Shown: positions 14,767 to 34,225 of the stretch, in pieces
How positions within the stretch are numbered: the first letter of the stretch is position 1
Layout of the letters: every line of letters starts with the position of its first letter
Origin: Candidatus Thorarchaeota archaeon
GTDB lineage: Archaea > Asgardarchaeota > Thorarchaeia > Thorarchaeales > Thorarchaeaceae
DNA length: 50,852 nt
NCBI GenBank assembly: GCA_048882485.1
Contig: JBHLRP010000022.1
Location: 1 to 50,852 of the forward strand
Direction of reading: 5' to 3'
Notes under the pieces: generated by a model
What the model saw: the letters and a program-made list of their open reading frames with translations, nothing else
Told to the model about the DNA's origin: nothing
Database searches by the model: none
Made by a program: the position numbers and the translations under genes

Positions 14767-15519
14767 GTGATGATCACACAACTTCAAGAGCAGCTGTCAA
14801 TTGCATGTGAGAAGAAAAGCAGAGGCCTAGTCGAGGTGACTTTGCCACTGCAGGTCATGTTCAATAATCGAGACTGGAACATCGTCAAAGCACGGATTAG
14901 ATACACCGGCCCTGAGCGTGATGCTTGGCTCATCTTAATCGTCGGCCTTCGCAGTGATATTCTGTCGACATTTGATCGTTTTGAGGAGGACATTCCAGGC
15001 AGATACTTACCTTGTGATCTTCTTGGTCTTGTACCAGCTATCTCTCTCATGGCATCCTCATATAACAAGGGGCTAGCCGTGAGCGCGATTGCCCGAGATG
15101 ATGTCACCCGCCTGATCCTAGTGTTTGAGGGACAATCGAATAGAAGTGGCGGGTCTCTCAGGACTCTATCTACTTCCATCTGCAACTTCATGAAGAAGTG
15201 GGAGTCTTGGGTTGACGTACTGCTAGGGACGCTGAAGAGGGATCCGGTTATAGGTGATTGGAACACAGACATCCGAGAGTTTCTGGCCGGCGAGTCGGGC
15301 TATATTACGATGCCTTGGCACACTCCTATGTCTTATGCTGATCGCGCAGCATGCTTGGAGAGGATTGTTCTCGCATCAAATGCTCTGATGAGTTCAGTTC
15401 TTGGCAATGGTCAGCTGGTCGACCCGATGGTTGTTGGCTTGAGAGAGTGGCTGAATGAACTGAGAGCACTCCCCGAGGTTGTCAGCGGAATTAAGGTTGG
15501 AGAGGAGGTTCCGATATAA
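14767..15519 (+). CDS. Hypothetical protein, first gene of the recombination/membrane operon
   Basis: 250-aa ORF; TAATG coupling to the next gene, with GAGGAGGT RBS inside its 3' end. Confidence 0.75.
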   Translation: MMITQLQEQLSIACEKKSRGLVEVTLPLQVMFNNRDWNIVKARIRYTGPERDAWLILIVGLRSDILSTFDRFEEDIPGRYLPCDLLGLVPAISLMASSYNKGLAVSAIARDDVTRLILVFEGQSNRSGGSLRTLSTSICNFMKKWESWVDVLLGTLKRDPVIGDWNTDIREFLAGESGYITMPWHTPMSYADRAACLERIVLASNALMSSVLGNGQLVDPMVVGLREWLNELRALPEVVSGIKVGEEVPI

Positions 15520-15986
15520 TGCTTACAGATGAAGTACTGAAGAGGCATGCAATTTCTCCTGTGGACTTGCCCAGTGCGGCTTGGCTTGCGGGAGCTGCTG
15601 CAGGACTGGAGGTCAATAGTCATAGGAGTCCGCAGTGGTTGTGGGAGCCGTTTATTGAGGACTTGTTGGACCTATTGGTTCATCATGGCAATATTGAGCC
15701 AGCCGAACCGGGCACAAGCCCCAAGTTTGGTGATGGTGCAATAGGGTCTGCATATGATGCGTTGGGAGGGTATGTATCTATCAGTGGTGAATTCTGTCCT
15801 GAAGGTCTCTACTTCAAAGTGCCATTGAAGCGACAGGAAGCAGTGGCTAGATTGCTATCACCCAGTCATGCTTACATTTCTAGCGGTGAGATAGTGATTC
15901 CACCCCATGAGATTCCAGCGTTTCTCAGACTAGTCCCGATTCATGGTCCATTATCTGACACAATCGTTGAGGAGGCGTTGGTATGA
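15519..15986 (+). CDS. Hypothetical protein (possible degenerate LAGLIDADG-like fold)
   Basis: 155-aa ORF coupled on both sides (TAATG, ATGA); the family guess is weak. Confidence 0.7.
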   Translation: MLTDEVLKRHAISPVDLPSAAWLAGAAAGLEVNSHRSPQWLWEPFIEDLLDLLVHHGNIEPAEPGTSPKFGDGAIGSAYDALGGYVSISGEFCPEGLYFKVPLKRQEAVARLLSPSHAYISSGEIVIPPHEIPAFLRLVPIHGPLSDTIVEEALV

Positions 15987-17050
15987 CTGAGTTGGAAGGA
16001 GTGACTGGTGTTGGACCTGCTGCGGCAAAGAAGCTGAGGGAGGCATTTGTTACAACAGCTGAGTTGCTGGCAGTTCAGAATCCTGTTGAGCTGCAAAAGA
16101 AAACAAAGCTCGGGGAAGGCACTGTTGAAAAAATCATTCGAAACGCCAGAATCCTCCTGGGCATGCATGGCTTCAAGTCTGGCCTTGAGGTGGAGAAAGA
16201 GATGGAGTCCAAGTCCCGCCTCAAGACGGGCATTGAGAAAATGGACGAAGCACTCTTTGGAGGAATCGAAGTTGGCTCTATCGTTGAGTGTTATGGCCCT
16301 GCAAGAGGTGGGAAGACGCAATTTAGTGCGCATTTGGCAGTCCGTGCACAACTCCCGAGAGACCAAGGGGGCCTTGAAGGCAGAGTATTGTGGTTGGACA
16401 GCGAGTCATCATTCAAGCCCTATACTATCAGAGCCAATGCCATTCGATGGGGTCTTGATCCTGACATTACATTAGGCAATATAGGACGTGCAGAGGTCTT
16501 CCTCTCTGATCAGATTCAGGAGATATTCGAGTCCATTCCCCAACTCTGCAGCGAGCAAGACTATGTCTTGGTTGTCATTGACTCATTCACCGGGCTCTTC
16601 CGTGCGGAGTACACAGGTCTCGAATCCCTGAGAATCCGTCAGCAGGAGATGAATGCGCTTTTAAACCAAATGAGAAGGACCGCGAAGGCCACGGACGCTA
16701 TCTTTGTCTACACGAATCAAGTGATGTCTAAGATAAGCACCTACGGGGGGTATGATAATGCTCCAATAGGTGGCCATATACTCTCTCATGCTAGTGATTA
16801 CAGATTCTACACACGTAGGACAAAGGACGACAAACGAAAGCTACAACTGATAGACAATGCAGGGCTTCCTGAGTTCGATGTAGAGATGGTTGTGGGTTGG
16901 GGTGGAATGTATCCAGACTCAAAGAGCAAGAAGGAGAGCGAACCAGAGATTCTCGACTACTTTGAGAAACAGGGCGTCACTGAAGAGGAGACTGAGATTG
17001 AACTCGAGGAGGCTGAGGCGCCGCAGGCTAAGGCAGGTGAAGCTGGGTGA
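15983..17050 (+). CDS. radA: Full-length RadA/Rad51-like recombinase (divergent paralog)
   Basis: N-terminal HhH domain (GVGPAAAKKLREA), Walker A GPARGGKT, Walker B LVVIDS, FRAEY..G...RQQ, TNQV, PIGGHILSHA, acidic tail. Confidence 0.9.
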   Translation: MTELEGVTGVGPAAAKKLREAFVTTAELLAVQNPVELQKKTKLGEGTVEKIIRNARILLGMHGFKSGLEVEKEMESKSRLKTGIEKMDEALFGGIEVGSIVECYGPARGGKTQFSAHLAVRAQLPRDQGGLEGRVLWLDSESSFKPYTIRANAIRWGLDPDITLGNIGRAEVFLSDQIQEIFESIPQLCSEQDYVLVVIDSFTGLFRAEYTGLESLRIRQQEMNALLNQMRRTAKATDAIFVYTNQVMSKISTYGGYDNAPIGGHILSHASDYRFYTRRTKDDKRKLQLIDNAGLPEFDVEMVVGWGGMYPDSKSKKESEPEILDYFEKQGVTEEETEIELEEAEAPQAKAGEAG

Positions 17051-17490
17051 CCTCGGAGCGAGGAATGTTCAGAGTCTACCAGTGCCCCAGTTGCACCAAC
17101 ATAGGATACACAGCTGTCGAGAATGAGCAAGAGGAGTCAAGATGCAGCCTATGCAGGAGTCTGATTCTTCATGCACCTGGAACAATCTATGCAGTTACGA
17201 TTCAAGAAGCCCAAGCGAGTGTCCGTGAGCTTGTGATAGAATTGCGCCAGAATGCCAAACCCCGAGGGGGAGGGAGAGGCTTGGGCATTAAAAGGCGTGT
17301 CTACTATATCGTTGAAGCGCTAGTTGACCTCAACAGAGGGCGACCAGTTTCGATTGAAGATGTCATGAGAGAATGCAGCGATGCAGGCATCGATATCTCA
17401 CGTGCAATGACGTTCCTTGACTCCCTCGTTTCAGAGGGCGAGGTAATCAAGAACGGTGTGCTAGTCACCATTCCAATGGAGGCGTGGTAG
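17047..17490 (+). CDS. Zinc-ribbon plus winged-helix protein
   Basis: CPSC...CSLC at the N-terminus; C-terminal GRPVSIEDVMREC..AGI.....FLDSLVSEGEVI wHTH pattern; GTGA overlap with radA. Confidence 0.8.
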   Translation: MTSERGMFRVYQCPSCTNIGYTAVENEQEESRCSLCRSLILHAPGTIYAVTIQEAQASVRELVIELRQNAKPRGGGRGLGIKRRVYYIVEALVDLNRGRPVSIEDVMRECSDAGIDISRAMTFLDSLVSEGEVIKNGVLVTIPMEAW

Positions 17491-18117
17491 TTGACGGGTA
17501 TCGAGTCAGAGAGCAACTACGTCTGGGTTCCGCGAGCCCCACCAACTGTCGCAAATAACACAATGATCAATCTCGTGAATCTTCTCATGAGGGAAACGTC
17601 ACATCGAGTGACCGTCCTGGAGAAATGTGTAGGTCCAAATCCTGAGATCTATGTCGTCACTAGAGTCGAATGGAGAACCCCTGACCTCAGTAAACCGGTG
17701 CTGCCGCAACTTCCGAGACTGCTTTCTCTCCTTGAAACATTGAGAGGGACACAGGGAGTCCCTCATGAGATACATCTGGACAGCACTGAGGGAATTGCCG
17801 TCTATCTACCAACAGGAGTGAGAGTATCACAGTTGCCCAGCAAACCAAAGGAGGCAGTGCAATCTCTCACTGACCTAATTGAAAGCTCAGTAAGTCACAT
17901 GTACTCCACTAAGCGAGAGGTTGAAGCTTGGTTCTGGAAGATAGCTCGCCAGAAAGGGTTCAGTCCAGTGATTGTGGAGCGAATGGCAAACAAGGAAATA
18001 GGGTACAAATCGCCTTCATTGATGTGGCAGTTCCATCAGCTTCTGCGGAAGTACTTCTCTCTACGGTTCAGAATCCACACGAGTGAGTCCTGTCTACATC
18101 TGGAGGCTGATTATTGA
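17491..18117 (+). CDS. Hypothetical protein
   Basis: 208-aa ORF whose TTG abuts the previous stop, with GGAGG RBS; TTGA overlap with the next gene. Confidence 0.75.
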   Translation: MTGIESESNYVWVPRAPPTVANNTMINLVNLLMRETSHRVTVLEKCVGPNPEIYVVTRVEWRTPDLSKPVLPQLPRLLSLLETLRGTQGVPHEIHLDSTEGIAVYLPTGVRVSQLPSKPKEAVQSLTDLIESSVSHMYSTKREVEAWFWKIARQKGFSPVIVERMANKEIGYKSPSLMWQFHQLLRKYFSLRFRIHTSESCLHLEADY

Positions 18118-20069
18118 GTACTGCAGTTACTGATCCTCTCGCATGGTTTCCTTATACACCTAGACTGCATCAGGATAAGGCTGTGCGGTTTGCTGCTGAG
18201 GTCTTTTCGTCAAAGACAGTGGGATTGCTGTCTGCCGATTGCGGCGTCGGAAAAACCGTGGCTGTCCTTTCAGGATATCTTGCTGCAAGAGGTAGTGATT
18301 CGAGCTCAAGGTTGGTCGTGCTGACAAGAACTCACAGTCAGTCAAGGGTGTTCGAGATTGAACTTGACGTTCTGAGGGCAATGATGCCTGAACTTACAGC
18401 CACAACGATGGTGTCGAGGATCCATATGTGTCCAATTAGAAGCGAGATTGACTCCGACACCTCTACAGGCTTTATGCGAGCCTGTGCATCGATGATCAAG
18501 ACAGGGCAATGTACGTACTATCACAATGTCTATCGAAAGAACTCCAGCGATGGTCGAAGTGTCATCAGAGATTGGGTTCGAGAACGCGTTGAGGAATTGC
18601 TAAGCACTGGTGTTGTGACACGTGAAAGAGTGGAAGACCTCTGCAGTGCCGAAGGGGTGTGCCCATATGAAGTGATGCGCTGGTGTGCGAGACAGAGCAA
18701 GGTCATTATTGGACCATATAGCTACATGTTCAGGTCAAGGGTACGGGAGGCTCTTCTAACATCATTGGGAATCTCACTCCATGATGCTGACCTACTTGTT
18801 GATGAAGCCCACAACCTGTCAGACCATGCGCTCGACTCGGAAACAGCCAGGCTGAACGGTGAAGACCTCCGATGGCTAAGGGACCACAAATCAGAGATCG
18901 TCAAGGAAACCCGGATAAACTGGATTGGAGAGGCAGTGGACTTTCTTTACGAAACAATGATGCTCAATCTTGATGGGATGAACAGGAGATCAGAGCGTAC
19001 ACTCGCCAAGTGGGATGTGGCTCCGAGATTCATCAAAGAGTCTGATCTGCAGCTCATGCATGAAACTACTAGCCCCAGCATCGGTGATCCTGAGGTGGCT
19101 GTTTCAATGGAGACTCCCCTTGACAGGCTTGTTGAGTTCCTCTTTGTTGCCCAGCTGTCTACCAGAAGTGAAGGGTGGCATGTGACGCTTAACGTGAAAC
19201 GGTCCTGGGATGAAGCATTGACTGCCTCGAAAGCCACGCTAATGATTCGCCCACTAAACGCATCCGGTCTTACTGCACCGGTCCTCAGGGGTGCAAAATC
19301 TGCGCTGTTGATGTCCGGAACTCTGAGACCCCTAGAGCATTATGCAAGGCTATTGGGAGTTGGAGGTGCAATAACAGAGGACTTGGCAAGTCCATATCCG
19401 CGGTCGACTAGGCTAGTGCTCATTGATAGAGAGCTCACAACTAAGTACCAGGCAAGAAGTCCTGATCTCTGGCGTTCACTGGCTGATAGAATAAACACGG
19501 TACTCACAACGGTTCCCGCAAATAAGAGCGCGCTCATTGCATTTCCAAGTTACAAGATTCTTCATGAAGTCTTGAGCTACGGCATTGATTCTGGATATCG
19601 CGGAATACTCATCGAAGAGAGAGGAAACCGCATTGAGACTGTCGCAGAAGCTTTGGAAATTGGCCCTCACGCCATTTTCTGTGTCTTCGGTGGGAAATTC
19701 TCAGAAGGGGTCGATCTAGTGAAAGGCGGCTCTAGTATGATAGACTTGATTATTGGAGTCGGGATTCCCTTCTCCCCTCCTACTAGCTACCAAAGGGCAT
19801 TGCAGGAGTTCTATGATACTCGCTTTGGGGAAGGAGCTGGCTACTATTATGGAGCGTTAGTCCCATCTATTCGTCAGGTTGCCCAAGTTCTTGGTAGACT
19901 AAGGAGGTCACCTGAAGACTGGGGTGTTGTTGTTCTTTTAGACAAGCGCTTTCTCAAGCATGTCCGGGTGTTTGGTGATGATATGGTAGCTGACATCTGG
20001 CCCTTTGGTGATGTTGCTGAACTCAAGGCTGCCATTTCACAGTTCATAGCGTTAAGGGAGGGAAGCTGA
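18114..20069 (+). CDS. XPD/Rad3/DinG-family Fe-S SF2 DNA helicase
   Basis: Q motif FPYTPRLHQ, motif I ADCGVGKT, Ia TRTHSQ, four Fe-S Cys (HMCP, RAC, QCTYY, VCPYE), DEAH, MSGTL, SEGVD, QVLGRLRRS. Confidence 0.93.
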   Translation: MSTAVTDPLAWFPYTPRLHQDKAVRFAAEVFSSKTVGLLSADCGVGKTVAVLSGYLAARGSDSSSRLVVLTRTHSQSRVFEIELDVLRAMMPELTATTMVSRIHMCPIRSEIDSDTSTGFMRACASMIKTGQCTYYHNVYRKNSSDGRSVIRDWVRERVEELLSTGVVTRERVEDLCSAEGVCPYEVMRWCARQSKVIIGPYSYMFRSRVREALLTSLGISLHDADLLVDEAHNLSDHALDSETARLNGEDLRWLRDHKSEIVKETRINWIGEAVDFLYETMMLNLDGMNRRSERTLAKWDVAPRFIKESDLQLMHETTSPSIGDPEVAVSMETPLDRLVEFLFVAQLSTRSEGWHVTLNVKRSWDEALTASKATLMIRPLNASGLTAPVLRGAKSALLMSGTLRPLEHYARLLGVGGAITEDLASPYPRSTRLVLIDRELTTKYQARSPDLWRSLADRINTVLTTVPANKSALIAFPSYKILHEVLSYGIDSGYRGILIEERGNRIETVAEALEIGPHAIFCVFGGKFSEGVDLVKGGSSMIDLIIGVGIPFSPPTSYQRALQEFYDTRFGEGAGYYYGALVPSIRQVAQVLGRLRRSPEDWGVVVLLDKRFLKHVRVFGDDMVADIWPFGDVAELKAAISQFIALREGS

Positions 20070-20672
20070 ATGGCATGGTTCGAGCGATGGGAGATTAGAT
20101 GGATTGGCCTTGGCACATTGATACTTGCTGCGCTTCTGGGGCTTTGGGTGTCCTGGGGCAACATAATGGGGATTTTCCTGTCATCAATCAGCATACTATC
20201 TGCATTACTCTTGGCCCTAAGCTGGAGGAATAGCCAGCTGCCCATTATAATATGGGATGAACAGCGTGGCGTCCTTGCTATTCTATGGTCATTTACACTG
20301 GAGGTCATAGCAGGACGATTGATGACAAGCGTTCCTATTGGCATAGACCTTAGCCATTCAGCATCCAAAGTGCTTCGAGCTCTCCATGCGCGATATGATG
20401 GGAAGAAGAATGGAGAAGTTCGGTTCTTTATCTGCAGACCCACAGGCGATGGCATCACCCGTGCAGGGATGCTTGTTGCGAGAAGAGGCATTCGGTTCAT
20501 AGATGGGATAAAGAAGGCGTCTTCAATCGCAGATGAAATTGTCATTGACGCGGCAGTCCTTGAGAGTTCGATGAGAGCCGCCTATCCTCACATGCCTATT
20601 GATCTAGCAGGGTTGGATGATTTGCTGATGGTGACTTCAGGAGGTGTTGAGCCGTATGCTCAAGTCAGGTGA
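20070..20672 (+). CDS. Hypothetical membrane protein (N-terminal TM hairpin plus soluble domain)
   Basis: Two N-terminal hydrophobic helices; ATG abuts the helicase stop codon. Confidence 0.75.
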   Translation: MAWFERWEIRWIGLGTLILAALLGLWVSWGNIMGIFLSSISILSALLLALSWRNSQLPIIIWDEQRGVLAILWSFTLEVIAGRLMTSVPIGIDLSHSASKVLRALHARYDGKKNGEVRFFICRPTGDGITRAGMLVARRGIRFIDGIKKASSIADEIVIDAAVLESSMRAAYPHMPIDLAGLDDLLMVTSGGVEPYAQVR

Positions 20673-20958
20673 TAGGATAGCTATCGAGCTTCCATTTGGC
20701 GTGACACACGAAGCAGTGATGCATTCGCTTGAGATAGGCCATGGCTATAATTGGCTGGTGCTGACAAAAAGCCCGACGCTCGTTGCTCATGGATCATCAG
20801 ATCTCGGAAACATGCCAGAGATTCTTCTCGTTGGAGAGCATTTGCTCCTCGTGTCGGAATCAGACTTCGTATACGCAGAACGGTTGCAGCGTGTGCTTGA
20901 GATGCTGCGACGCCAGATAAAATCCATTTCAACAGCGGGAGGGACTTCGGTTGGGTAA
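20656..20958 (+). CDS. Small hypothetical protein
   Basis: ATG 20656 follows GGAGGTG RBS; overlaps both neighbours. Confidence 0.7.
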   Translation: MLKSGDRIAIELPFGVTHEAVMHSLEIGHGYNWLVLTKSPTLVAHGSSDLGNMPEILLVGEHLLLVSESDFVYAERLQRVLEMLRRQIKSISTAGGTSVG

Positions 20959-23308
20959 GCGTCTAATTCTCGGTACCGAGCCCGAAGTTGATCCACTAAA
21001 GGAGATCTCTCAACCCAGCATGACTGTGAGTGGTGGGATTGATCTTCAATGGGATGACCGCAGAGTGAAACCATCCCACGGTCGTGATGCAATCACGGCA
21101 ATCACCGTAGCAGTCATTCTCGCGGCACTGCCATGGAGTCTTGCTATGGTTTCCCTCGGAAGTTTCCTTGTTACGATACTAGTCCCCAAACTGAGGACCT
21201 CACAAGAGATTCGCTCCCTAGAAGAATCAGAATGGATTCGTGTTCCTGAGAGCGATACATCCTTTGCAGTGAATGAAGAACACAATGCCGTTCAGTGCAA
21301 AACGGCATCCGGCAATCGCAACGTGATAGGATTGGAGCTGCCATTGGCTGGTCCTCTATTAGTCGGAAATATGAGTGCACTCGTTAGAGCCATCGATAGC
21401 TCAAAGGGATTCTGTCTATCAGTGATAGCAAGAGCCGAAGAATCCTCCTCCATCGTGGAAGAAGAGCGTCTTTCTTCTCGATTGGATGGTTACTTGAACT
21501 ATCTATCAAGCGGTGGATTGGATGCCTATATGACCAGGCGCGGAGGCCTTTGGTCCGTCCGGGTTTCGATTATGGGGCACTCGCAGGATATCAATCAGGT
21601 TCAAAGATTCGAATCATCGATTAAGGCAGCTGTTCCGGATGGAAACTGGTCTAAAATGACGCCCAAATCTTTAGCTTCGAATATGCGGGCGATGAACATG
21701 GCGTTTCGGCTTCCATCATTCTATGCCGCCGGATCCGAACTCTCAGAGTGGTTAATACAGATTCCTAGTGAGCTTGCATCTGAGATTGGATCGAATGTTC
21801 CAGGTGAGTTCCTTGCACCCATAAAGCCCAGAGCAGGAGATTATTACATAGGCCGCGTGATAAATCCAGAAACCCTTCAGCCCGGACCTGCTGCTGGTCT
21901 ATCACACGAGGATATTCGATCCGGACTATTAGTTTGCGGAGGGACCATGGAGGAGCGAAGGCATACGATCACTCTGATTATGAGACAGCTTCTGTCACAT
22001 GGAAAGCGGGTCATTATTGTGAGTAGTGAACCTGATGCCAAGAATTTCGCATCTCTTTCTGAAGGTGCAGTATCATTTGAGCTTGGCAAGGATCTGGTAC
22101 TGAATCCTATGGACGCAGAAGGACTTCCAAGACATATCTATGTGTCCAAATTGATGACTGCTCTAGAGGTAATTGCGGGGACTGACCTTCGCGGTGCAAC
22201 TGACCTTGAACTTGCGATCAATCGTGCCATTGCATTAGGCAACACAACTGTGGCTGACGTTCAACTGACCCAGACACCAGATGTCATGGATACATATTCA
22301 GAGGCAGCAGAACAGAACGAACGAAAGCCATCTGATAGAAGTGTGTCAGGTTATGAAGCAATAAGGTCTCTACACCAAGGAACTGCGGCACGTTCCTTCT
22401 ATGGTTCTCAGACAATCGCTATGCGCGATCTGGCGCAGGCTAGCCTGGGCGTGTTGATTTTATCCCAAGGATATTTGCCAATGGAGAAATTCGCGTTCGA
22501 TCTTGTTTGCATCAAGCTCTCAGGACTCCAACAGGACCAAGATCTCGTTATCATACTCGAGAATGCAGAGAATATGAGAATTCGAAACCGGCGATATATG
22601 AAGAGGGACTCATGGAGTGAGATGATGCTTCGAGATCTGTTGCAAAGAGGTCCCACAATTGTCACGCTGGATCATCCAGTAGACATGTCCCCCGGTGCAA
22701 TTGGCAAATTGAACTCATGCATCACTCATCGACTTCGCGAGAGTCCGGATATTAAGACAGCCGTGGAATTGCTCGGCATCAGTGTCGTTTCGTCAGGCAT
22801 GCATAGTAAAGCCCGTCAATCATCCAGAGAAACATCATACCTGAGAGTAATGCCGGACGGAGTAGTCCTGTTGGTCCGAAACCAGGGCGAAACATGCATG
22901 CCTGTTGAGTTGGATGAAGCGGCCCCTCTTACTGGGCTTCACCCCGAGGAGATGGAGAGACGCATTTCTGATCTCATTCCTCAGGAGTTTCCCACTGAAG
23001 GAATGGCTTTTGGCGATTCACTGATTGATAGAGTCGCTGGAGGACAGAGAAATACAGCCATCAAGATGCTTCGACTGCTTGAGAGGTATGAACCACTGAC
23101 AGAGGAAGCAATGAGGAAATTCCTCCTTTCAGGAGATGGGAATGAGGATCCTGACATCAGTGGAGTACTTGCCAGGCTGGAGAAATCGGGCATGATACTT
23201 AGGGGTCATGAGGTCCATGGAGCGGTTTCGTATACAAACTACCGAATCACCATGAAGGGCAGCATGGCTCTTCATCAAGTTGCACAGAGGGATGAAGCAG
23301 AAAGATGA
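20951..23308 (+). CDS. Membrane-anchored HerA/VirB4/CedB-like protein with degenerate ATPase motifs and C-terminal winged helix
   Basis: N-terminal hydrophobic segment. HerA-like layout: IGRV...LSHEDIRSGLLVCGGTMEERR (Walker A position), LVLNPM, LVIILENAE (Walker B position), TLDHPVDM...LNSCITHRL...D, LRVMPDGVVLL. The C-terminus is wHTH-like (LARLEKSGMI...YRITMKG). Confidence 0.7.
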   Translation: MGKRLILGTEPEVDPLKEISQPSMTVSGGIDLQWDDRRVKPSHGRDAITAITVAVILAALPWSLAMVSLGSFLVTILVPKLRTSQEIRSLEESEWIRVPESDTSFAVNEEHNAVQCKTASGNRNVIGLELPLAGPLLVGNMSALVRAIDSSKGFCLSVIARAEESSSIVEEERLSSRLDGYLNYLSSGGLDAYMTRRGGLWSVRVSIMGHSQDINQVQRFESSIKAAVPDGNWSKMTPKSLASNMRAMNMAFRLPSFYAAGSELSEWLIQIPSELASEIGSNVPGEFLAPIKPRAGDYYIGRVINPETLQPGPAAGLSHEDIRSGLLVCGGTMEERRHTITLIMRQLLSHGKRVIIVSSEPDAKNFASLSEGAVSFELGKDLVLNPMDAEGLPRHIYVSKLMTALEVIAGTDLRGATDLELAINRAIALGNTTVADVQLTQTPDVMDTYSEAAEQNERKPSDRSVSGYEAIRSLHQGTAARSFYGSQTIAMRDLAQASLGVLILSQGYLPMEKFAFDLVCIKLSGLQQDQDLVIILENAENMRIRNRRYMKRDSWSEMMLRDLLQRGPTIVTLDHPVDMSPGAIGKLNSCITHRLRESPDIKTAVELLGISVVSSGMHSKARQSSRETSYLRVMPDGVVLLVRNQGETCMPVELDEAAPLTGLHPEEMERRISDLIPQEFPTEGMAFGDSLIDRVAGGQRNTAIKMLRLLERYEPLTEEAMRKFLLSGDGNEDPDISGVLARLEKSGMILRGHEVHGAVSYTNYRITMKGSMALHQVAQRDEAER

Positions 23309-25512
23309 CGGTTGTAGCTGATGTTCAGGAACAGGTGCATAGGCTTCTCCATCAGCTGGGTATTAAACCGAGAGGGATCCAGAAAACTTCGATTGAACGG
23401 GGCCTTCTGGATGGCGCAAGCATTTTGGTCTGCAGTCCAACTGGCTCTGGCAAGACATTGGTAGGTGAGATGGCTCTCCTTAGAGCAGCACTGACTGGAA
23501 AGAAGGGAATCTATCTAGTCCCTCTGAAGGCTCTCGCCGTGCAGGTGTCTGGAATTCTGATAGATAGGTATGAGCCTCTGGGCTTACGAATTGGTGTGAG
23601 TACAGGGGACTTTTCGAATGATGGTGAGAGTCTTTCGGACTATGATGTCATTGTGACAACATACGAGAAGGCGGATTCTTTGCTAAGACGAAAGACAGCC
23701 TGGCTCAATTCTATTGGCTCTCTAGTCATAGATGAGATTCAGACAATTTCTGATTCTGGAAGGGGTGCCCGTCTTGAATCCATTATAATCAGGTTTAAGC
23801 GAATGGTTGACGGCTTTCAGTTGATTGGGCTTTCAGCAACGGTTGGCTCACCAGATGAGCTGGCTGAGTGGCTTGGCTGTACTCTTGTTGAATCAGAAGA
23901 TCGTCCTGTGCCCTTGGTCTATCGTGTTATTCCTTCAAAACACAGGGAGCGAGTTCTTCGCCAACTGGTTATGACAACAGTGCAAGGCGATGGCCAGGCA
24001 ATTGTCTTTCATCGGACGAGACGCGAAGCTGAATCACAGGCTATACGTCTTTCAGGGGATGTTGGACGGCATTTCACTAGAATTGAAAAGGAAGATCTCG
24101 ACACAGAGCTTGAGTCAGTTGAGAATTGGAATGTCACTATACCGTCCGAACTCAGAACTCTTCTTCATGATGGCACAGCTTTTCATCATGCGGGTCTGGG
24201 AAATCGGGCTCGGCGGCTTGTTGAGGATTTATTTCTCCGGGGCAAAGTTCGAGTGATCTGCGCCACTACAACACTGGCGGCAGGGATGGACCTCCCCGCG
24301 AGGACAGTTGTTCTTACTAATGTGCGGTCTCCGGGAAATCACCGAGAAATGCTTCCTGCTAACTCCATTCATCAAATGCTAGGTCGAGCTGGTCGGCCTG
24401 GCTATGATACGACCGGGTTCGGGATTATTCTAGCTGGAAGCTCCGGAGAAGCTAAAGATGTTGAAAAGAGATACTTTCTTTCGTCATTGGATAATGAGTC
24501 GTCGACAAAAATCCTCTTTCCAAAATATGATCGTGTGATTAGCAAACTCGGCGAGTCAGCAACACTGACTGAGCAACTGCTCGTTGCACTTGATGCTTTG
24601 AATGAAGCAACCTTGGAAGACATTGCAGACGGTTTTCTGGGCGATTCCTACCTAGTGTTCACTGGAATAAGAGATACAAACTCTCCCATGCGAGTTATTC
24701 AGTTGGGTGATATAAGTGCGGAATCTGCAATCGAGAAGCATGCCTTATCAGACACTGTGCGTCCAGCTCGTCAAGGGCTCCTGGGGAGCATTAGCCTTAG
24801 GGAAACAAATGACAGTGTTATTGGTGGCATCGTAGCAGCATGGGAGGAAGGACACTATACCTGTAGGTATTCGGCCCGTCTTTCTGCTGATGGTGTTGTG
24901 GAGGGTCCGCAGTGCTCATGCTCTAGACCTATTGATAGGAATGGAGTTCTATGTTCTCACTTGGTTGCCCTGGGGCTGTATGCAGCAAGAGAGCTAGGCA
25001 GCCTTGCAGACTATGTAATTCCAGTCGCGCTGAGCGAGCTAAGTCCAAGTGAACTTCTCGTCAGGCTGGGCCTTATCGAGGGTGGAATAGAAGGAAAGAT
25101 GAAGCCTACACGATTGGGGCGGATTGTAAACCGGCTTTATCTCAGCATTCCAACAATTCGTGAGCTACTGGCAGTACTTCCAAAAATCGAGGAGAGCACA
25201 ACACTGCTATGGCTCTTGAAGCATCTGGTTTCAATCGAATCGGGGACTTCACTTGAGGATTCTTTCGAACATCTTATCGCTGCTGCAGCCACAACAGACA
25301 TTCCTCTCGAGGAGTTGGCCCGGAGTTCAGGATTTCATTTGGGTGATGCTTATGGACTACTGGAAGCCGCTCATTGGTTGCTTTACGCAATAGTTGCTGT
25401 GGCAGAGGTGGGGGGTTTGAAACAGCCAATGGCTGTTTCGCAGAGGTTGATGGAGGGACTAGAAACAAGACTTGCAGGAAGCAGGAAACAAGATTTTGGA
25501 GGCGCAAAATGA
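23305..25512 (+). CDS. Hel308/Ski2-like SF2 helicase with inserted SWIM zinc finger
   Basis: PRGIQ, SPTGSGKT, PLKALA, TYEKADS, IDEIQ, LSAT, RPVPL, FHHAGL, TTTLAAGMDLPA, QMLGRAGRPG; CSC-x10-CSH at 24913-24960. Confidence 0.92.
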   Translation: MTVVADVQEQVHRLLHQLGIKPRGIQKTSIERGLLDGASILVCSPTGSGKTLVGEMALLRAALTGKKGIYLVPLKALAVQVSGILIDRYEPLGLRIGVSTGDFSNDGESLSDYDVIVTTYEKADSLLRRKTAWLNSIGSLVIDEIQTISDSGRGARLESIIIRFKRMVDGFQLIGLSATVGSPDELAEWLGCTLVESEDRPVPLVYRVIPSKHRERVLRQLVMTTVQGDGQAIVFHRTRREAESQAIRLSGDVGRHFTRIEKEDLDTELESVENWNVTIPSELRTLLHDGTAFHHAGLGNRARRLVEDLFLRGKVRVICATTTLAAGMDLPARTVVLTNVRSPGNHREMLPANSIHQMLGRAGRPGYDTTGFGIILAGSSGEAKDVEKRYFLSSLDNESSTKILFPKYDRVISKLGESATLTEQLLVALDALNEATLEDIADGFLGDSYLVFTGIRDTNSPMRVIQLGDISAESAIEKHALSDTVRPARQGLLGSISLRETNDSVIGGIVAAWEEGHYTCRYSARLSADGVVEGPQCSCSRPIDRNGVLCSHLVALGLYAARELGSLADYVIPVALSELSPSELLVRLGLIEGGIEGKMKPTRLGRIVNRLYLSIPTIRELLAVLPKIEESTTLLWLLKHLVSIESGTSLEDSFEHLIAAAATTDIPLEELARSSGFHLGDAYGLLEAAHWLLYAIVAVAEVGGLKQPMAVSQRLMEGLETRLAGSRKQDFGGAK

Positions 25513-25513
25513 A

Positions 25514-27124
25514 ATGGCTATATCAAGTCGCGAAGGTCCACGTTCCGATGTGGGTGTTGGGGATGAAACTGAGGAGCCAAGTGGCGATCTTATTAGTGCT
25601 CTGAGAGCTTCGGGCCATTCTACTTGTGAATATCCAAACGGGCTAGTTAGTGCTGTTCGTTTGGAATCTATCCCTGGAACACGAGGTGTCCATGTGGAAG
25701 TTGTTCATGTTCTGGACTTGAGGACTGCTCGCTTCGGCAAAAGCGGGCTGGCTATGAGAGCCGCCCTCTTGGAGAGCGTCAATCGGGAGTTCGAAACTGT
25801 CTTACATGATGTTGGATTGGGAGATTATCTTGAACGAAGCGAGCTGAAGACTCCTCTTAATACTGTGTCACTACATATGCTACGAGGAAGCAAAGGCAGG
25901 AAGGCTTCATTGATTCATCCGACCAGAACAGTCTATGTTGTGACTAGGAATGTGAAGCCTACCATGGATCTGTCTTGGCTAACAGATTCAGGAAGACTGG
26001 TGACCATTGAGGAATTTGCTCTTGCGCGAAGAAGTGATGCGCGATCATTCTTGCCTGAAATCAAACATGCAGTGAGTCAGAAGAAGTGGTCTTCCTTGGA
26101 GCGTAGCATAAAGAGAGGATGGCTTGGAGTATTGGCTTTGGCTGCGTGTCTAATTGCAGTTGGTTCTACAGTCATTACCCAGCTTTCAATATCTGGCTCA
26201 ACTCTCCCATCAGTACTTACAGTGGTAGTGTCACTACTGACAGGTCTCTGGCTGCTTTCTAGTTCTACCAGCAATTTGAAGGAATTTGAGAATTCGGTAC
26301 GAGAAGAAGATGCGGTTCTCTCAACCCTTGGAGATTCGGCAAGAATTCAGCAATCCATAGAGTCCAACGAGGATAATCTTCGCCTACTAGGCGACATCAG
26401 CTTTGTTGTATCACCCCTTATGGCAAGTCTCGCAAACACCATCGAAGCTGGCTCTCTTCAAGAATCTATAGAAACCGCTTGTACAATACTGGATGAGTGT
26501 GTGCGGATGGCTCCCCTCAGGATTCAGGAAAAGAATTCCAAGGGAGCTGGAGATGAAGGTCTAGCACGATTTCTTGGCCTATTCGATGCTCTTGGAGTTC
26601 AAGTGGAAAAGGAATCACTTGCACTATCATACGTTGCGCTCACAGCTCACATCACGTCGCCTCTCAGTTTCGAGGATATGATACAGCATGTGGGTAGTCT
26701 GAGCTATGCCCTGTATAATGCTGGAGTTCTTCGACCTGACATAAAGGACATGGTTGATGACAAGGTCAACAATCGAGCAATGAAGAGGACGATTGACGCC
26801 ATTGATAAATCATTAGCTGAACCTGGCGAGCTCCATGCAGAACTACCATCAAGAACAGCAACCACCGAAAGACCAGAAGAAGACGATTCATCAAACGAGG
26901 AGGAGCTCGACCCGAATCTCCTCGATGCTATGTTGCACTCAACACTGAAAACTCAAGTTAATGAAATCCCAATAATAGCGGCTGAAGCAATAGATGAAAC
27001 CACACCAGAGGAAGAGATTCCCACTGGGGCAGATATTGTTGCTGCGAGCAATGCAGGTAAGGAGCCATCAAAGCTTGTTCAGGCTTCCCTATTCGACTTT
27101 GAGGAGGGAAGCTCTTCTGGTTAG
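25514..27124 (+). CDS. Hypothetical membrane protein (central 2-TM hairpin, acidic disordered tail, C-terminal PIP-box-like motif)
   Basis: ATG 25514 follows GGAGG; two hydrophobic helices mid-protein; ends ...VQASLFDFEEGSSSG. Confidence 0.75.
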   Translation: MAISSREGPRSDVGVGDETEEPSGDLISALRASGHSTCEYPNGLVSAVRLESIPGTRGVHVEVVHVLDLRTARFGKSGLAMRAALLESVNREFETVLHDVGLGDYLERSELKTPLNTVSLHMLRGSKGRKASLIHPTRTVYVVTRNVKPTMDLSWLTDSGRLVTIEEFALARRSDARSFLPEIKHAVSQKKWSSLERSIKRGWLGVLALAACLIAVGSTVITQLSISGSTLPSVLTVVVSLLTGLWLLSSSTSNLKEFENSVREEDAVLSTLGDSARIQQSIESNEDNLRLLGDISFVVSPLMASLANTIEAGSLQESIETACTILDECVRMAPLRIQEKNSKGAGDEGLARFLGLFDALGVQVEKESLALSYVALTAHITSPLSFEDMIQHVGSLSYALYNAGVLRPDIKDMVDDKVNNRAMKRTIDAIDKSLAEPGELHAELPSRTATTERPEEDDSSNEEELDPNLLDAMLHSTLKTQVNEIPIIAAEAIDETTPEEEIPTGADIVAASNAGKEPSKLVQASLFDFEEGSSSG

Positions 27125-27803
27125 CGAATACAGCCTTCGAACATCATTGAAGCTCGGAGGTATTATCCATTTCATAGGACCTGCAGGATCCGGCAAGACG
27201 TTGCTAGCGGCGACTATCGCGGCAGATGCATCTCGGACATCTCACGTGGAATGGATAAATGCTGACTCAAAGAAACGGTTCATACCTCATCTGAAGGCAA
27301 CAGTCAAGCATCTCAGGGGGGTGGAGAGTAACGTGTCTGTTATGATGACGAAAGGTCACAAACAGACATTGGATGCTTTGTTAAAATTGAGAACTACGAT
27401 AACACCAGACACGTCTCTAATTGTCATTGACCCTATTACAAGGGTGCTTGACATGTCAAGAAATGATCCCATCCTTTGGGGGCGATTACTAATAGAAGAG
27501 GCACTGCCCACACTAGGAGCATTATCTTGGGAAAGAGGCATAGATATCATTGTTGTAAGTGAGATGAGATTTCTTCATGAGATTGGCAATCATCCAGTGT
27601 TTTCTAATGAAATAGCAAAATGGGCAGATACTACTATCAAGGTTTGCAGGGATATTTCCAGCAAATCGTCATCTGTTTCAATTGTGGAGAATGGTGATGA
27701 TCGCAAAATCGCACAGCTCCGAGTCCTACAAAACGGAGCTTGCCATCTGTCTCTTTCACATCACCGAGGAGTGGTCACGAATTGCTTGGAAGAGGAATTC
27801 TGA
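26994..27803 (+). CDS. RadB/Rad51-paralog-like RecA-fold ATPase without N-terminal HhH domain (true start probably near 27117)
   Basis: Walker A GPAGSGKT, WINADS..F, Walker B LIVIDPIT, IIVVSEMR, KWADTTIKV; GAGGAGG at 27101 suggests a later start. Confidence 0.85.
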   Translation: MKPHQRKRFPLGQILLLRAMQVRSHQSLFRLPYSTLRREALLVSEYSLRTSLKLGGIIHFIGPAGSGKTLLAATIAADASRTSHVEWINADSKKRFIPHLKATVKHLRGVESNVSVMMTKGHKQTLDALLKLRTTITPDTSLIVIDPITRVLDMSRNDPILWGRLLIEEALPTLGALSWERGIDIIVVSEMRFLHEIGNHPVFSNEIAKWADTTIKVCRDISSKSSSVSIVENGDDRKIAQLRVLQNGACHLSLSHHRGVVTNCLEEEF

Positions 27804-28729
27804 AGATTATCGGTTTGGCGATAGCAGGAGCAATGGCTTTAGCGGGTGGTGCCCAGTTGCTCTCATCAGTGGCACTTGTGGTTATTTCCTTCAGAAGCGG
27901 GAATATCATCCCCCTGATCATTGCCATAGGCACAACAGCGGCATTGATTCATCTGAAACGACTATTTACCAAACATGCACTATCTGCAATTCTAGGGATA
28001 CTTGCTTATGCAGCCTCGGGATATCTTGCCGTGGTCGCATTCGTTGGACTGTTGCCTTATGGGATGATTTCATCCCTATTGGGTGCCGCACTAACGATTA
28101 TTGCATGTTCGGTGATGTATGACCCAAGCAACCTGAAAGAATGGATGGCAACATTGTCCCCCGACTCGTCAATATCGTGGCTGAGCAGAGACCCAGGAAC
28201 ACCTGAGTTTTCGATAGGCAAGGAAGTTTCACACCATATTGCACTACTCCCGTCTGAAAGCCGAGAGAAGGTCATCATGCTGATGAGAGACCGACCACTT
28301 CTACCAATTTCACTGACTCACTTCAATGAATGCGACGCGCTCTTCATTGACCTAAAGTCTGAGAGGATAAATTTGAACCAGATCAGAGATGCTCTCTTTA
28401 GAGCAAACGTGGCAATCAAGAATGATGCATCACCACTCTTGCGGGAGGCAATTCTCAAGGTCCCTATTATTGATGAAAAACATGGCCTTTCGATGGCAGA
28501 ATACTGTTTAGCTACTGATCAGGAAACTGTTAATCAGCTAATACGGAATCCCCCTTCACGCATGTTTGTTTTCCCTAGTAGAACCGGTCCCAGAGTCATC
28601 TATCCTGAATCGGCAGCACCAGGTCTAATATCTCAAAGAGTTCCTGAAAGCGAACTTGTCAATGCACTATTGCTTCACAGATATACCACTCTTAAGGAGG
28701 CCAATGACACCTTTGCGAATGCCACTTGA
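27782..28729 (+). CDS. Hypothetical membrane protein (about 4 N-terminal TM helices plus soluble domain)
   Basis: TTG 27782 follows GAGGAG; the first ~110 aa are hydrophobic. Confidence 0.75.
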   Translation: MLGRGILKIIGLAIAGAMALAGGAQLLSSVALVVISFRSGNIIPLIIAIGTTAALIHLKRLFTKHALSAILGILAYAASGYLAVVAFVGLLPYGMISSLLGAALTIIACSVMYDPSNLKEWMATLSPDSSISWLSRDPGTPEFSIGKEVSHHIALLPSESREKVIMLMRDRPLLPISLTHFNECDALFIDLKSERINLNQIRDALFRANVAIKNDASPLLREAILKVPIIDEKHGLSMAEYCLATDQETVNQLIRNPPSRMFVFPSRTGPRVIYPESAAPGLISQRVPESELVNALLLHRYTTLKEANDTFANAT

Positions 28730-29429
28730 TTCACTAAATGTCAATTCACGATCCGAAATCTCGCTTGCCCCGAAGCAACTTGATGACTTGCTAGGAAACA
28801 TTCTTGCACGCGAACAACTAAGCCTCTTTCATGGCCCTGAGCGATCTCCTCTTACGTCTCTCGCCCACGCCATATCAATTGCCGCAGCTGAACTAGGTGA
28901 GGGACATGCGGTCTATATTGATTCAGGGTCAAATTACAGTCCCACTTTAGCTCGAGCAATGTGCAATTCAAAGAGAAGGGTGTCAAAGATACTCAGCCGC
29001 GTTATTGTCGGGAATGTATTGAGTCTTTCAGACTTGGAGAATCTCAGTAAAAGCATTCCAAACTTGGGCCCTGTATCTATAATATTGCTCGACAGCCTGA
29101 CGGGAGTTCTGAATCTTTCTGGAGCTCCAGGAAGTGCAGGGAGGCAAAGAGAGCTCTTTCATTGTCTTGAGGTCTTGAGGGAACTAGTAAATGAGATTGG
29201 AACTCATCTTTTGATGACAGACCATTCTTCAAGAAGCTGGAATTCAGATCAATCTATACCCATTGGTGGTAATGTTCTTGCTCATGCTGTTGATTCTGTA
29301 GTGAGAGTTGATCGACTGGACGTGGGGAAGAATCTGATTCGTATATTGGTCGAGCGCAGCACACTAGGTTCTGAATCGCAAGCATTGATTCTAGTGGAAG
29401 GAAAGAAAGGTCTGCGTACCTTCAGATAG
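28704..29429 (+). CDS. RecA/Rad51-paralog-like protein with degenerate Walker A
   Basis: ATG 28704 follows GGAGG. QLDDLLG, GPERSPLT in place of GxxxxGKT, VYIDSG, ILLDSLT, RQREL, PIGGNVLAHAVD. Confidence 0.85.
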   Translation: MTPLRMPLDSLNVNSRSEISLAPKQLDDLLGNILAREQLSLFHGPERSPLTSLAHAISIAAAELGEGHAVYIDSGSNYSPTLARAMCNSKRRVSKILSRVIVGNVLSLSDLENLSKSIPNLGPVSIILLDSLTGVLNLSGAPGSAGRQRELFHCLEVLRELVNEIGTHLLMTDHSSRSWNSDQSIPIGGNVLAHAVDSVVRVDRLDVGKNLIRILVERSTLGSESQALILVEGKKGLRTFR

Positions 29430-29440
29430 CGGTGATTCCT

Positions 29441-30433
29441 ATGGGTGTGACTGGTTGGAGCAATCTGGTCCCTTGGGCATGGGCCGATGTGAATGAGGTT
29501 ACACCAGGCAATATCGCAATAGACATGCCCAATTATTTGACGCGTCGTGTGAGTGTCATTCCTTCATCAAAACGAGATAGCGGCAGAATTCCCCTTCATC
29601 ACGCTGGAATGACTCTAAGCTTGATAAGAATGTGTCTGAAGAACGCATTACTGCCAGTCCTCATTTTTGATGGTCCACCAGAGCGTATGAAGAGGTCTCC
29701 AAATCCTGAACTCATTCTCACTGCTCAATCCTTCTACAGGCAATTCAAAGAGACTCGGGATCCGTACGATGAGGAGATAGCCAGTCCATTGCGGAAGAGT
29801 CCGTCTCTCAGAATGTACTTCGCTATCGAGCACACACGCGAACTCGCACGCGTTCTAGGTGTGCCTGCAATCTCAGCGCCATCGGAAGCTGAGATGTTTT
29901 CTGCTGTGCTATGCAGAGACAGGCTAGTTAATACAGTCGTTTCAAATGACTCAGATGCGCTTCTATTTGGGAGTCCACATGTAACGAAGCAATTGCAGCT
30001 GTCAAAAAGGCTGATACACAGAGCCACGCTTGCTGATTTGGAAAGCACGACTGGACTTGATCTTGAACAACTAAGAGACCTCGCTGTAGTATGTGGATGC
30101 GATTTTCACAGGCAAGGAGTGAAAGGTATCGGTCCAAGAAAGGGGATGATTCTCCTTCAGCGACATGGAGGGTTGGAAGCATTACTCAAGGCACGAGGGT
30201 ATGGTCCAATTGAACGTAGGGAATTTATGGATGGCAGACAGGCATTCGATGAGGCTAGCTACATTTCTACAAATGGGCTTTTCTTCGATCTAAATCCGCC
30301 ACTAGTCTCGAAGCTTACGGGGATGCTGACTATGTTCATGACGGAGAACCGTGCAGAAGAGATTACGCGTCAGTTTGTTGGATTATGGAGGAAATTTGGC
30401 ACACATCAAGAAACTCTAGAGCAATGGCTCTGA
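29441..30433 (+). CDS. FEN1/XPG-family structure-specific 5' nuclease (divergent) with C-terminal PIP box
   Basis: MGV N-terminus, IAID, IFDG, APSEAE, SNDSDALLFG, GCDF, GVKGIGPRKG (H2TH), terminal QETLEQWL. Confidence 0.9.
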   Translation: MGVTGWSNLVPWAWADVNEVTPGNIAIDMPNYLTRRVSVIPSSKRDSGRIPLHHAGMTLSLIRMCLKNALLPVLIFDGPPERMKRSPNPELILTAQSFYRQFKETRDPYDEEIASPLRKSPSLRMYFAIEHTRELARVLGVPAISAPSEAEMFSAVLCRDRLVNTVVSNDSDALLFGSPHVTKQLQLSKRLIHRATLADLESTTGLDLEQLRDLAVVCGCDFHRQGVKGIGPRKGMILLQRHGGLEALLKARGYGPIERREFMDGRQAFDEASYISTNGLFFDLNPPLVSKLTGMLTMFMTENRAEEITRQFVGLWRKFGTHQETLEQWL

Positions 30434-34040: not shown

Positions 34041-34225
34041 ACATAGAACAAACCATGAAGAGATATCCAAGTCCCGGGTCGGATCCTTCCCATATCCCTG
34101 CTTCAGTAGAAAAAGACCCACCTATTCCAATGGTCCCCGTGACCTTTTTCCCAAAAGGTTCGGCCCCGGGACACCTCTTCATTTCGAGGCATTATTGGGA
34201 GAGGAGCAGAGAGGTTGAGGCATAG
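34037..34225 (+). CDS. Small proline-rich hypothetical protein
   Basis: 62 aa; ATGA overlap upstream and overlap with the start of the giant gene, filling the gap exactly. Confidence 0.6.
   Translation: MNIEQTMKRYPSPGSDPSHIPASVEKDPPIPMVPVTFFPKGSAPGHLFISRHYWERSREVEA

Follow-up and report, generated by a model that had tools for sequence, protein, structure and literature searches.

A divergent second set of recombination enzymes encoded with membrane proteins in one operon of Thorarchaeia

We begin with the question raised by a tightly packed run of genes in an Asgard archaeon: why should a genome carry a second set of recombination enzymes, and why should that set be encoded together with membrane proteins? 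The genes lie on a contig of 50,852 nucleotides from a Candidatus Thorarchaeota archaeon (GenBank assembly GCA_048882485.1, contig JBHLRP010000022.1), the whole of which is called the window in this text. A first-pass annotation, made from the letters alone, had correctly guessed an Asgard genome, and the related loci are those of Thorarchaeota; it had also proposed that the genes could be a prokaryotic counterpart of the eukaryotic RAD51-mediator network. The answer we arrive at, with confidence evenly balanced, is that the locus would be a vertically inherited, membrane-tethered accessory homologous-recombination machine of Thorarchaeia. Its most likely purpose, which we hold only tentatively, would be to take DNA that arrives at or crosses the envelope, by import or by cell-to-cell exchange, into recombination.

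The operon spans positions 14767-30433 of the + strand and consists of 15 genes, labelled A to O (Table 1). Neighbouring open reading frames (ORFs) overlap by 1-41 nt or are separated by a gap of at most 2 nt, so a single operon is expected. The seven parts that had been claimed (RadA, XPD, Hel308, SWIM, two RecA folds and FEN1) are all present on the + strand in their claimed places when read with Pfam and NCBIfam. The recombination operon is real, then, with two corrections: its true start is at 14767, two genes before the 15983 given earlier, and to the seven components eight additional genes have to be added. These eight include four membrane proteins, one of them HerA-like with a degenerate ATP loop. 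Pfam and NCBIfam together identify 7 of the 15 products, and the remaining eight have no family match in Pfam, NCBIfam, PADLOC or PHROG.

The next question is whether these enzymes are the housekeeping copies of the cell. The genome (3.96 Mb in 157 contigs, 90.5% complete) encodes higher-scoring versions of four of them elsewhere: the canonical RadA on contig C45 reaches 318.7 bits against 188.1 for the operon protein (Pfam Rad51), the canonical FEN1 on C20 434 bits against 117, the canonical Hel308 on C21 619 bits against 288, and the canonical XPD on C38 312.6 bits against 91 + 68. On these scores the operon enzymes are a spare, divergent second recombination set, distinct from the housekeeping machinery. 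Most of the named public copies are labelled "RadA" or "DEAD/DEAH box helicase", labels by which this spare-copy status is hidden. The second set looks in good part equipped for catalysis, with intact motifs in C, L, F and O and degenerate ATP sites in N and I. We also observe that the canonical XPD gene (G000:C38:14471-17806, minus strand) adjoins a RadB-like gene, so that a pairing of helicase and RecA fold is present in the housekeeping set too.

Consider the full-length recombinase, gene C. Aligned with canonical RadAs, it retains the HhH N-domain, GPARGGKT, the Walker B sequence VVIDS and the GG loop of L2 (PIGGH), and a conserved extension of about 45 aa, absent from canonical RadA, follows at its C-terminus. 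The linker of RadA/Rad51 holds the polymerisation motif FxxA; the C family has FxxG or FxxA at this place (FKSG, FRSG, FKSA), and the canonical copies have FETA or FKSA. The protein passes the cut-off of the RadA model NF003301 (267.6 bits, cut-off 259) and stays below that of TIGR02236 (243.3 bits, cut-off 361), where canonical RadA scores 479 and 465 bits respectively. With the RAD51 and DMC1 models gene C reaches 200 and 196 bits, and canonical RadA 338 and 337; the RadA paralogues of the related clusters likewise score higher with the RadA model than with RAD51 and DMC1. Judged by these models, gene C is not nearer to eukaryotic RAD51 than an ordinary RadA. A homologue search with C returns, as its best 120, Thorarchaeota-type orthologues only. 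In one related locus (L044, G021:C15, 16220-17155, minus strand) an extra RadA-like ORF, 30% identical to C, stands directly upstream of C in the usual place of B.

The two small RecA folds are of different kinds. Gene L, whose true start is probably near 27117, has both Walker A (GxxGSGKT) and Walker B intact in all nine aligned sequences, and it falls well below the cut-off of the RadB model TIGR02237 (26.3 against 172.4 bits). A profile of L searched against 1.84 billion representatives finds 308 proteins at E ≤ 0.001, with its own family (about 43 clusters) at the top followed by a drop in score. Just below this drop, TIGR02237 is the best model for 30 of the 30 proteins examined. With its nearest outside relatives RadB-like throughout, L is best described as a divergent RadB derivative that is not a RadB member by the curated cut-off. 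Against the Protein Data Bank (PDB) the same profile matches RecA (1.5e-8, 37 bits), RadB (2.2e-5, 27 bits) and RAD51D (7e-5, 25 bits).

Gene N, with a true start probably near 28704-28719, has lost its Walker A in all nine aligned copies (GPERSPLT and variants) and keeps the PIGGN loop. The N-like protein of the sister family (genome G037) retains a Walker A, GGPGTGKT, which makes the dead ATP site a later change in the window's own family. The best PDB match of the N profile is the RadA of P. furiosus (1pzn, E 6.5e-18, 68 bits), followed by DMC1 at 60 bits, RAD51 at 49, RAD51D at 38 (about 1e-8) and RadB at 30 (4e-6); at E ≤ 0.1 no chain named RAD51B, RAD51C, XRCC2, XRCC3, SWSAP1, Csm2 or Psy3 is matched.

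A maximum-likelihood tree computed with a quick method places these proteins among 53 RecA-family sequences, all archaeal, taken from the same genome, from five further Asgard genomes and from the orthologues of the operon genes; left out are the C orthologue of L043, which contained a stop, G000:C34 (weak Pfam match, with a stop) and G048:C1:396696 (weak Pfam match). Gene C forms its own clade (support 100 by the quick method) beside the short-branched clade of canonical RadA. The N clade sits on a stem of 2.36 and the L clade on a stem of 2.02, and a separate RadB-like clade includes the gene that adjoins canonical XPD. On these clades and stems, L and N each represent an old paralogue family that evolves fast, and neither is a recent copy of the other. 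Both look archaeal, L as RadB-derived and N as RadA-core-like; neither appears to have a special affinity to the eukaryotic RAD51 paralogues, RadB for L and archaeal RadA for N being nearer by sequence.

We turn to the two helicases. Gene F aligns in register with canonical XPD at C106, C124, C133 and C183 and at the GVGKT and DEAH motifs, and it scores 162.1 bits with the rad3 model TIGR00604, below the cut-off of 246.95. An XPD-type gene is seen only in the clusters of the window's order. We note that the PADLOC model typeIV_DinG matches F over its full length with 253 bits, more than the 162 bits of TIGR00604. Gene J is the Hel308-type member and also remains below the equivalog cut-offs of its family (291-347 against 887-1216 bits). 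Its motif II reads DEIQ in most copies, and it lacks the C-terminal HhH domain 5, the alignment stopping before the C-terminal stretch of the canonical copy. A structural model of J residues 401-735 (pLDDT 87.3) finds Hel308/Hjm as a match in the winged-helix and ratchet domains (2p6r, E 1.9e-4; 2zj2, Z 13.6, root-mean-square deviation 4.1 over 211 aligned residues).

What distinguishes J is an insert in its winged-helix domain. Winged-helix regulators align to residues ~7-60 and ~180-213 of the model, on both sides of a stretch of about 146 residues, and we conclude that this insert splits the winged helix. It carries the motif CxCx10CxH, which in the window reads C-S-C-x10-C-S-H (residues 537-552); the four positions do not vary among the 16 related helicases compared, which come from several families, and the canonical Hel308 of the genome has no such motif. 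In a SWIM fold, a helix with the CxH comes after a set of strands. In the model, four strands are followed by a helix, the CxC (C137/C139 in model numbering) ending the last strand and the CxH beginning the helix (from residue 151), an arrangement with which a putative SWIM fold of the insert would be compatible. The Pfam SWIM model PF04434 stays below its threshold on the J excerpt (13.8 against 19.6 bits, E 0.043) and gives 11.9 bits on the C-terminal half. A profile of the insert matches no solved SWIM protein among PDB sequences and gives one chance-level match (E 0.25), and the fold lists for the C-terminal half are filled by Hel308 and winged-helix proteins, with SWIM-containing structures absent. 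A complex prediction of J residues 440-585 with L and N scored 0.00 in two runs made without controls and is uninformative either way.

A homologous CxC..CxH insert occurs in a second Ski2/Hel308-like protein of the same genome (G000:C23:36694-38910, minus strand, 738 aa). Neither a Walker A nor a DExH is seen in it by reading the sequence, and it may therefore be a pseudo-helicase. A second match to the insert profile (E ~1e-15) is found in most genomes of the family.

The nuclease, gene O, stands in the same relation to its canonical copy as the other enzymes. With the fen_arch model it scores 117.8 bits, below the cut-off of 351.95, and the canonical FEN1 scores 434. The seven acidic residues of the FEN1 active site (D31, D80, E152, E154, D173, D175 and D224) are invariant between O and canonical FEN1. 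At the C-terminus, the O of the window and 7 of 8 family orthologues have QxxLxxW/F, where canonical FEN1 ends in QSSLTDFF; this tail would be expected to bind PCNA.

How are these enzymes tied to the membrane? Transmembrane (TM) segments are found in G, I, K and M and are conserved in their orthologues. In protein I the Walker A reads CGGxxxER in all 12 aligned sequences and departs from GxxGxGK[ST]; because it is degenerate in every aligned copy, protein I is predicted not to be a motor in the usual way. Its profile matches HerA in the PDB (8xau, E 8.5e-5), a weak match over only about 80 residues, and its relatives in other families match Pfam HerA_C (E 9e-4, one relative) and HTH_24. The C-terminal QASLFDF of K (window 27080-27100) was considered as a PIP box and rejected, since among 8 orthologues no more than one has a similar motif.

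The arrangement can be followed through related genomes by means of protein I. In a search with the single protein it is found in 25 of 61 relatives; by profile it is found in 51 of the 70 genomes of the window's family (f1) that are at least 80% complete and in the single genome of the sister family (f2). It is mostly single-copy in the family, double matches being fragments on separate contigs. The wider protein I family occurs in 184 of 332 Asgard genomes, with the full-length forms in f1 and f2. The loci related by the protein I profile belong to Thorarchaeota or, for the nearest ones, to Promethearchaeota/Hermodarchaeota. We fetched 20 kb around protein I in 12 genomes. In 9 of the 9 loci of the window's family tblastn finds A-O in the same order and on the same strand at 25-75% identity, with the provisos that one locus ends at a contig end after K and that B and/or H are undetected in two. 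Such an arrangement is not due to chance: this is a stable chromosomal locus, vertically inherited.

Other Asgard families share a smaller core made of the SWIM helicase, the HerA-like protein and RecA-like and FEN-like genes. At least nine further families have shorter I-like proteins (~530 aa) that lack the membrane part, and a profile of the SWIM insert alone has matches in 168 of 332 Asgard genomes. Where a strong I-like match exists outside the window's family (n = 18), a SWIM-insert helicase lies within 10 kb on the same contig in 11; among the other seven the helicase is on another contig in one, the match has no listed place in two, and there is no match in four. In family f9 the I-like domains lie within proteins of ~1270 aa and the helicases are ~845 aa long; both are on one contig, 6-17 kb apart, in 7 of the 14 genomes where both places are listed. 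The clusters of other Asgard families contain RadA-type, small RecA-like and FEN-like genes in varying sets, and five of the six full-length J-like helicases that adjoin I-like genes carry CxC..CxH. The link of helicase and SWIM to small RecA-like genes, on which the first-pass annotation had relied, thus recurs in several Asgard families, and this recurrence makes a functional tie between the helicase and the RecA paralogues plausible.

Three of these clusters have further neighbours. In one other Asgard family, L104 (G146:C13) is a run of 14 co-directional packed ORFs with J-, L-, RadA-, I- and FEN-like genes, and a small GTPase of the Arf/Ras/Roc type (1913-2521, + strand) lies within the same run. 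In the SWIM-helicase clusters L113 (G240:C1) and L115 (G044:C47) of f9, a gene for a DEAD-box helicase with an RNA_helicase_helical domain precedes one for a zinc-ribbon protein of the DUF1922 type; an HhH protein of 712 aa is a further member of L113, and a RadA-type protein that ends in a DUF4332 tail is a further member of L115.

Table 1. Genes of the operon and of its downstream neighbourhood, with positions in the window.
Feature	Positions	Strand	Length (aa)	Description
Gene A	14767..15519	+	250	First operon gene; start possibly ATG at 14770
Gene B	15519..15986	+	155	No family match
Gene C	15983..17050	+		Full-length second RadA; HHH_5 31.7 bits, Rad51 187 bits
Gene D	17047..17490	+	147	Four Cys, CPxC..CxLC, zinc-ribbon-like; then a conserved C-terminal half
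Gene E	17491..18117	+	208	Mean column identity 53%
Gene F	18114..20069	+		XPD/Rad3-type Fe-S helicase paralogue; DEAD_2, Helicase_C_2, HBB
Gene G	20070..20672	+	200	About 2 N-terminal TM helices (hydropathy scan of the protein and orthologues)
Gene H	20644..20958	+	104	
Gene I	20951..23308	+	785	N-terminal membrane anchor, HerA-like P-loop domain, winged-helix-like tail
Gene J	23305..25512	+		Hel308-type helicase paralogue; NCBIfam Hel308 291-347 bits, residues 6-442 only
J insert	24622..25059	+	~146	In winged-helix domain; CxCx10CxH (C537, C539, C550, H552)
Gene K	25472..27124	+	550	2 TM helices mid-protein, acidic tail
Gene L	26994..27803	+		Small RecA-fold ATPase; AAA_25 27.8 bits, RadB 26.3 bits
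Gene M	27740..28729	+	329	4-5 N-terminal TM helices, soluble C-terminal half
Gene N	28656..29429	+		RadA-core-like RecA fold; Rad51 41.3 bits, RadB 54.9 bits
Gene O	29432..30433	+		FEN1-type nuclease paralogue; XPG_I 66 bits, fen_arch 117.8 bits
Gene P	30416..32584	-	722	Convergent neighbour; conserved, fast-evolving, 23-33% identity outside the genus
Membrane protein	33438..34040	+	200	4 TM helices; accompanies the giant gene
Giant surface protein	34215..42035	+	2606	Prenyltrans-type toroid, Filamin, MG2, Big_1

Downstream of the operon lies a gene for a giant surface protein, and we ask whether it belongs to the same system. The protein begins with a hydrophobic signal or anchor and ends with a TM helix followed by arginines. 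Its gene follows P and small genes on the operon's strand in 7 of the 7 family genomes from which downstream DNA was fetched, and the product is 36-44% identical over its full length across these seven. In the sister family (G037) a homologue of 2466 aa with the same domains (E 1e-98) is encoded inside the operon, with the K-like gene on one side and the L-, M-, N- and O-like genes on the other, and is preceded by a homologue of the 200-aa membrane protein. Proteins with a Prenyltrans domain also adjoin clusters in two further families of Asgard archaea (1081 aa in G043, 782 aa in G044), and the window's own genome has only two ORFs with this domain. On the strength of its place inside the G037 operon, its downstream place in all seven family genomes and the Prenyltrans neighbours in G043 and G044, we count the giant gene and its 200-aa partner as parts of the system; in the window's family this membership is deduced from the neighbourhood. 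The flanks are conserved too, with a divergent GH3-family gene upstream and P and genes for proteins of 183 and 200 aa downstream.

The operon products without a family deserve a brief description. Gene A has no match in Pfam, NCBIfam, PADLOC or PHROG, its profile is blank against PDB sequences as well, and it is at the same position in 9 of 9 family loci. B and H are each detected by tblastn in seven of the nine. The four cysteines of D are invariant in the alignment and the protein has no Pfam match; in locus L033 (G035:C20, 14784-15382, minus strand) gene D is in two pieces about 100 nt apart, which may reflect a frameshift, an insertion or an assembly error. Gene E is the best conserved of the operon proteins without a family. 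Its AlphaFold2 model (pLDDT 82.8) has no clear match to a solved fold (best Foldseek E 0.17, best VIA Z 4.9); its profile finds nothing meaningful among PDB sequences, and the ESM Atlas holds no usable match.

Base composition is uniform across the window, and no integrase-type or capsid-type domain is found among the 23 other ORFs scanned. About 3 kb upstream of the operon, at 9386-11751 on the minus strand, is a gene pair for an SbcC/Rad50-like ATPase (429 aa; AAA_23, SMC_N, SbcC_Walker_B) and an Mre11/SbcD-like phosphoesterase (359 aa). The Mre11-like gene is visible only in the locus of the nearest relative, the sole fetched locus that reaches far enough.

Having described the parts, we consider how they could work together in a membrane-tethered accessory recombination machine. 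Protein I with G, K and M would form a docking platform at the membrane, where F (5'-3') and J (3'-5') would open or strip the DNA. L and N would act as mediators or caps that load or stabilise the C filament on single strands, and O, held on PCNA, would trim the flaps that strand invasion or annealing leaves behind. In DNA handling at the envelope, the giant surface protein would face outwards. We favour envelope DNA handling as the purpose because it accounts for the membrane and surface parts together.

Several observations weigh against this proposal. The HerA-like protein I appears to have no working ATP loop, so it could not be a DNA pump, and obvious genes for a channel, a pilus or an uptake nuclease were not recognised in the ORF scans. 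With 8 of 15 products lacking a family, fewer than half of the parts carry the model. The PADLOC matches of F (typeIV_DinG, 253 bits) and J (HamB and others) leave some room for a defence reading. In the window's family the convergent gene P parts the giant gene from the operon, and the membership of the giant gene is taken from the sister family. Finally, protein I is unmatched in 19 of 70 family genomes; most of these are incomplete, and some are more than 90% complete.

A bolder version of the proposal, which we regard as doubtful, is that the locus is an Asgard DNA-exchange ("mating") apparatus, with surface contact, a motor-dead dock like HerA/VirB4, and a dedicated second recombinase that integrates the DNA. 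If true, it would be a prokaryotic two-recombinase exchange system whose logic parallels RAD51/DMC1 with their helpers, and its SWIM-Hel308 core would be spread across Asgard archaea.

Which other explanations have to be weighed? The main rival is an intracellular pathway specialised for some repair task, such as restarting blocked forks or mending crosslinks, that runs parallel to the housekeeping one without any DNA transfer, its membrane proteins serving only to localise or regulate. The recombinase, the mediators and the XPD-, Hel308- and FEN1-type enzymes with a PCNA-box-like tail are the set that such a pathway needs, the SbcC/Rad50-like and Mre11-like pair lies 3 kb away, and the locus is chromosomal and vertically inherited. 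This rival nevertheless leaves unexplained the four membrane proteins, one of them HerA-like, that are interleaved in every copy, as well as the giant surface gene inside the sister-family operon, and we consider it rather unlikely.

The defence and domesticated-element readings are weaker because the site is fixed and because effector or mobility genes were not recognised. That the operon is a defence system against viruses or mobile elements, built from paralogues of repair enzymes, is in our view improbable. PADLOC does match F (typeIV_DinG, as above), J (HamB, PDC-M23B and BrxH, 90-129 bits) and, weakly, D and L, and known defence systems include HerA-like proteins and Ski2-like helicases, to go by the PADLOC names. 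The other 11 operon proteins and P, however, have no PADLOC match and no known system is assembled from them; Pfam and NCBIfam recognise no toxin-like effector domain. Defence islands are usually patchy in distribution, whereas this locus is single-copy at a fixed chromosomal site with flanks conserved across genera.

We give an equally small chance to the idea that the operon is the ancestor or a direct relative of the RAD51-mediator network, with N and L as orthologues of the RAD51 paralogues or SWSAP1 and the insert as a forerunner of SWS1/Shu2. Its attractions are clear: a parallel parts list in an Asgard genome, all components of which are indeed present; a SWIM helicase linked with RecA-like genes in several Asgard families; a RecA fold with a lost ATP site in gene N, the RecA folds of the Shu complex being ATPase-dead; and PDB matches to RAD51D from the L profile as well as from the N profile. 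The details point the other way. L has RadB as its nearest outside relative in 30 of 30 cases, N matches RadA, DMC1 and RAD51 above RAD51D and none of the other named paralogues at E ≤ 0.1, and the loss of Walker A in N is limited to one family, as the full 15-gene form is to one order. The RadA paralogues of the clusters score higher with RadA than with RAD51/DMC1, and lower with RAD51 than canonical RadA does, and a sequence search with the insert profile finds no solved SWIM protein. Common descent, as the first-pass annotation had envisaged it, is thus not upheld, given the low RAD51/DMC1 scores of gene C and the family-specific loss in N. What survives of the "prokaryotic counterpart" is a resemblance of working principle.

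Least likely of all is a domesticated conjugative or viral remnant, that is, a module for DNA export or replication-recombination captured by the ancestor of the order: it can call on the HerA/VirB4-like membrane protein I, on PHROG matches for C, F, J and weakly N (from which no system is assembled in the PHROG scan) and on the divergence of all the enzymes from their paralogues, but no domain of an integrase, capsid, relaxase or replication initiator is recognised among the scanned ORFs of the window, whose base composition is even, conserved flanks are found in every genus examined, and the ATP loop of protein I is degenerate in all 12 aligned copies.

Why does such a locus matter? Among known prokaryotes, Asgard archaea are the closest relatives of eukaryotes, and how the multi-helper RAD51 apparatus arose is a standing question. 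The locus indicates that Asgard lineages built multi-paralogue recombination sets independently, with a second recombinase, a RadB-derived ATPase, an ATPase-dead RecA fold and a SWIM Hel308-type helicase. It offers a biochemically testable case of how helpers work with a recombinase. If the handling of incoming DNA is indeed its purpose, it would bear on gene flow in the lineage ancestral to eukaryotes. In the literature searched, no archaeon is described in which recombination enzymes are tied to membrane proteins and to a giant surface protein; a full-text search, which covers that literature in part, finds neither the operon nor a Hel308 with a SWIM module described. In a preprint, Asgard recombinases are divided into 18 groups; the parts consulted do not treat gene context.

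The closest comparison among known systems is the archaeal housekeeping set itself (RadA, RadB, Hel308/Hjm, XPD and FEN1), since each recognisable operon enzyme is a paralogue of one of its members and C, L, F and O retain the catalytic motifs. The differences are that the operon copies score far lower than the canonical ones of the same genome and are joined with membrane proteins in one operon, and that J bears the SWIM-type insert without a domain 5, C is extended at its C-terminus, and N is without Walker A.

A second comparison is with the HerA/VirB4/FtsK-type P-loop DNA machines. Proteins of this kind act in NurA-HerA resection, in crenarchaeal Ced DNA import and in type IV secretion. 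Protein I resembles them in its HerA-like domain, its membrane anchor and its DNA-enzyme neighbours; it differs in the Walker A degenerate throughout the alignment and in its winged-helix tail. No NurA, CedA or pilus gene is recognised among the window ORFs scanned with Pfam and NCBIfam.

The third comparison is with the HELQ-BCDX2-Shu network of eukaryotes, in which the SWIM protein SWS1 of the Shu complex pairs with SWSAP1. HELQ physically interacts with BCDX2, according to PMC13623763. The operon has the same kinds of element: a Hel308-family helicase, RecA-fold accessories (one of them ATPase-dead here) and a SWIM-type module. In the operon, however, the helicase, the RecA folds and SWIM are tied solely by gene order and domain fusion, the SWIM module is inserted in the helicase and is not a protein by itself, the membrane anchoring and the surface protein have no eukaryotic counterpart, and the profile and model scores carry no signal of orthology. 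The resemblance to the network of HELQ, RAD51 paralogues and Shu would accordingly be one of working principle, an analogy in which the sequences bear no sign of shared ancestry.

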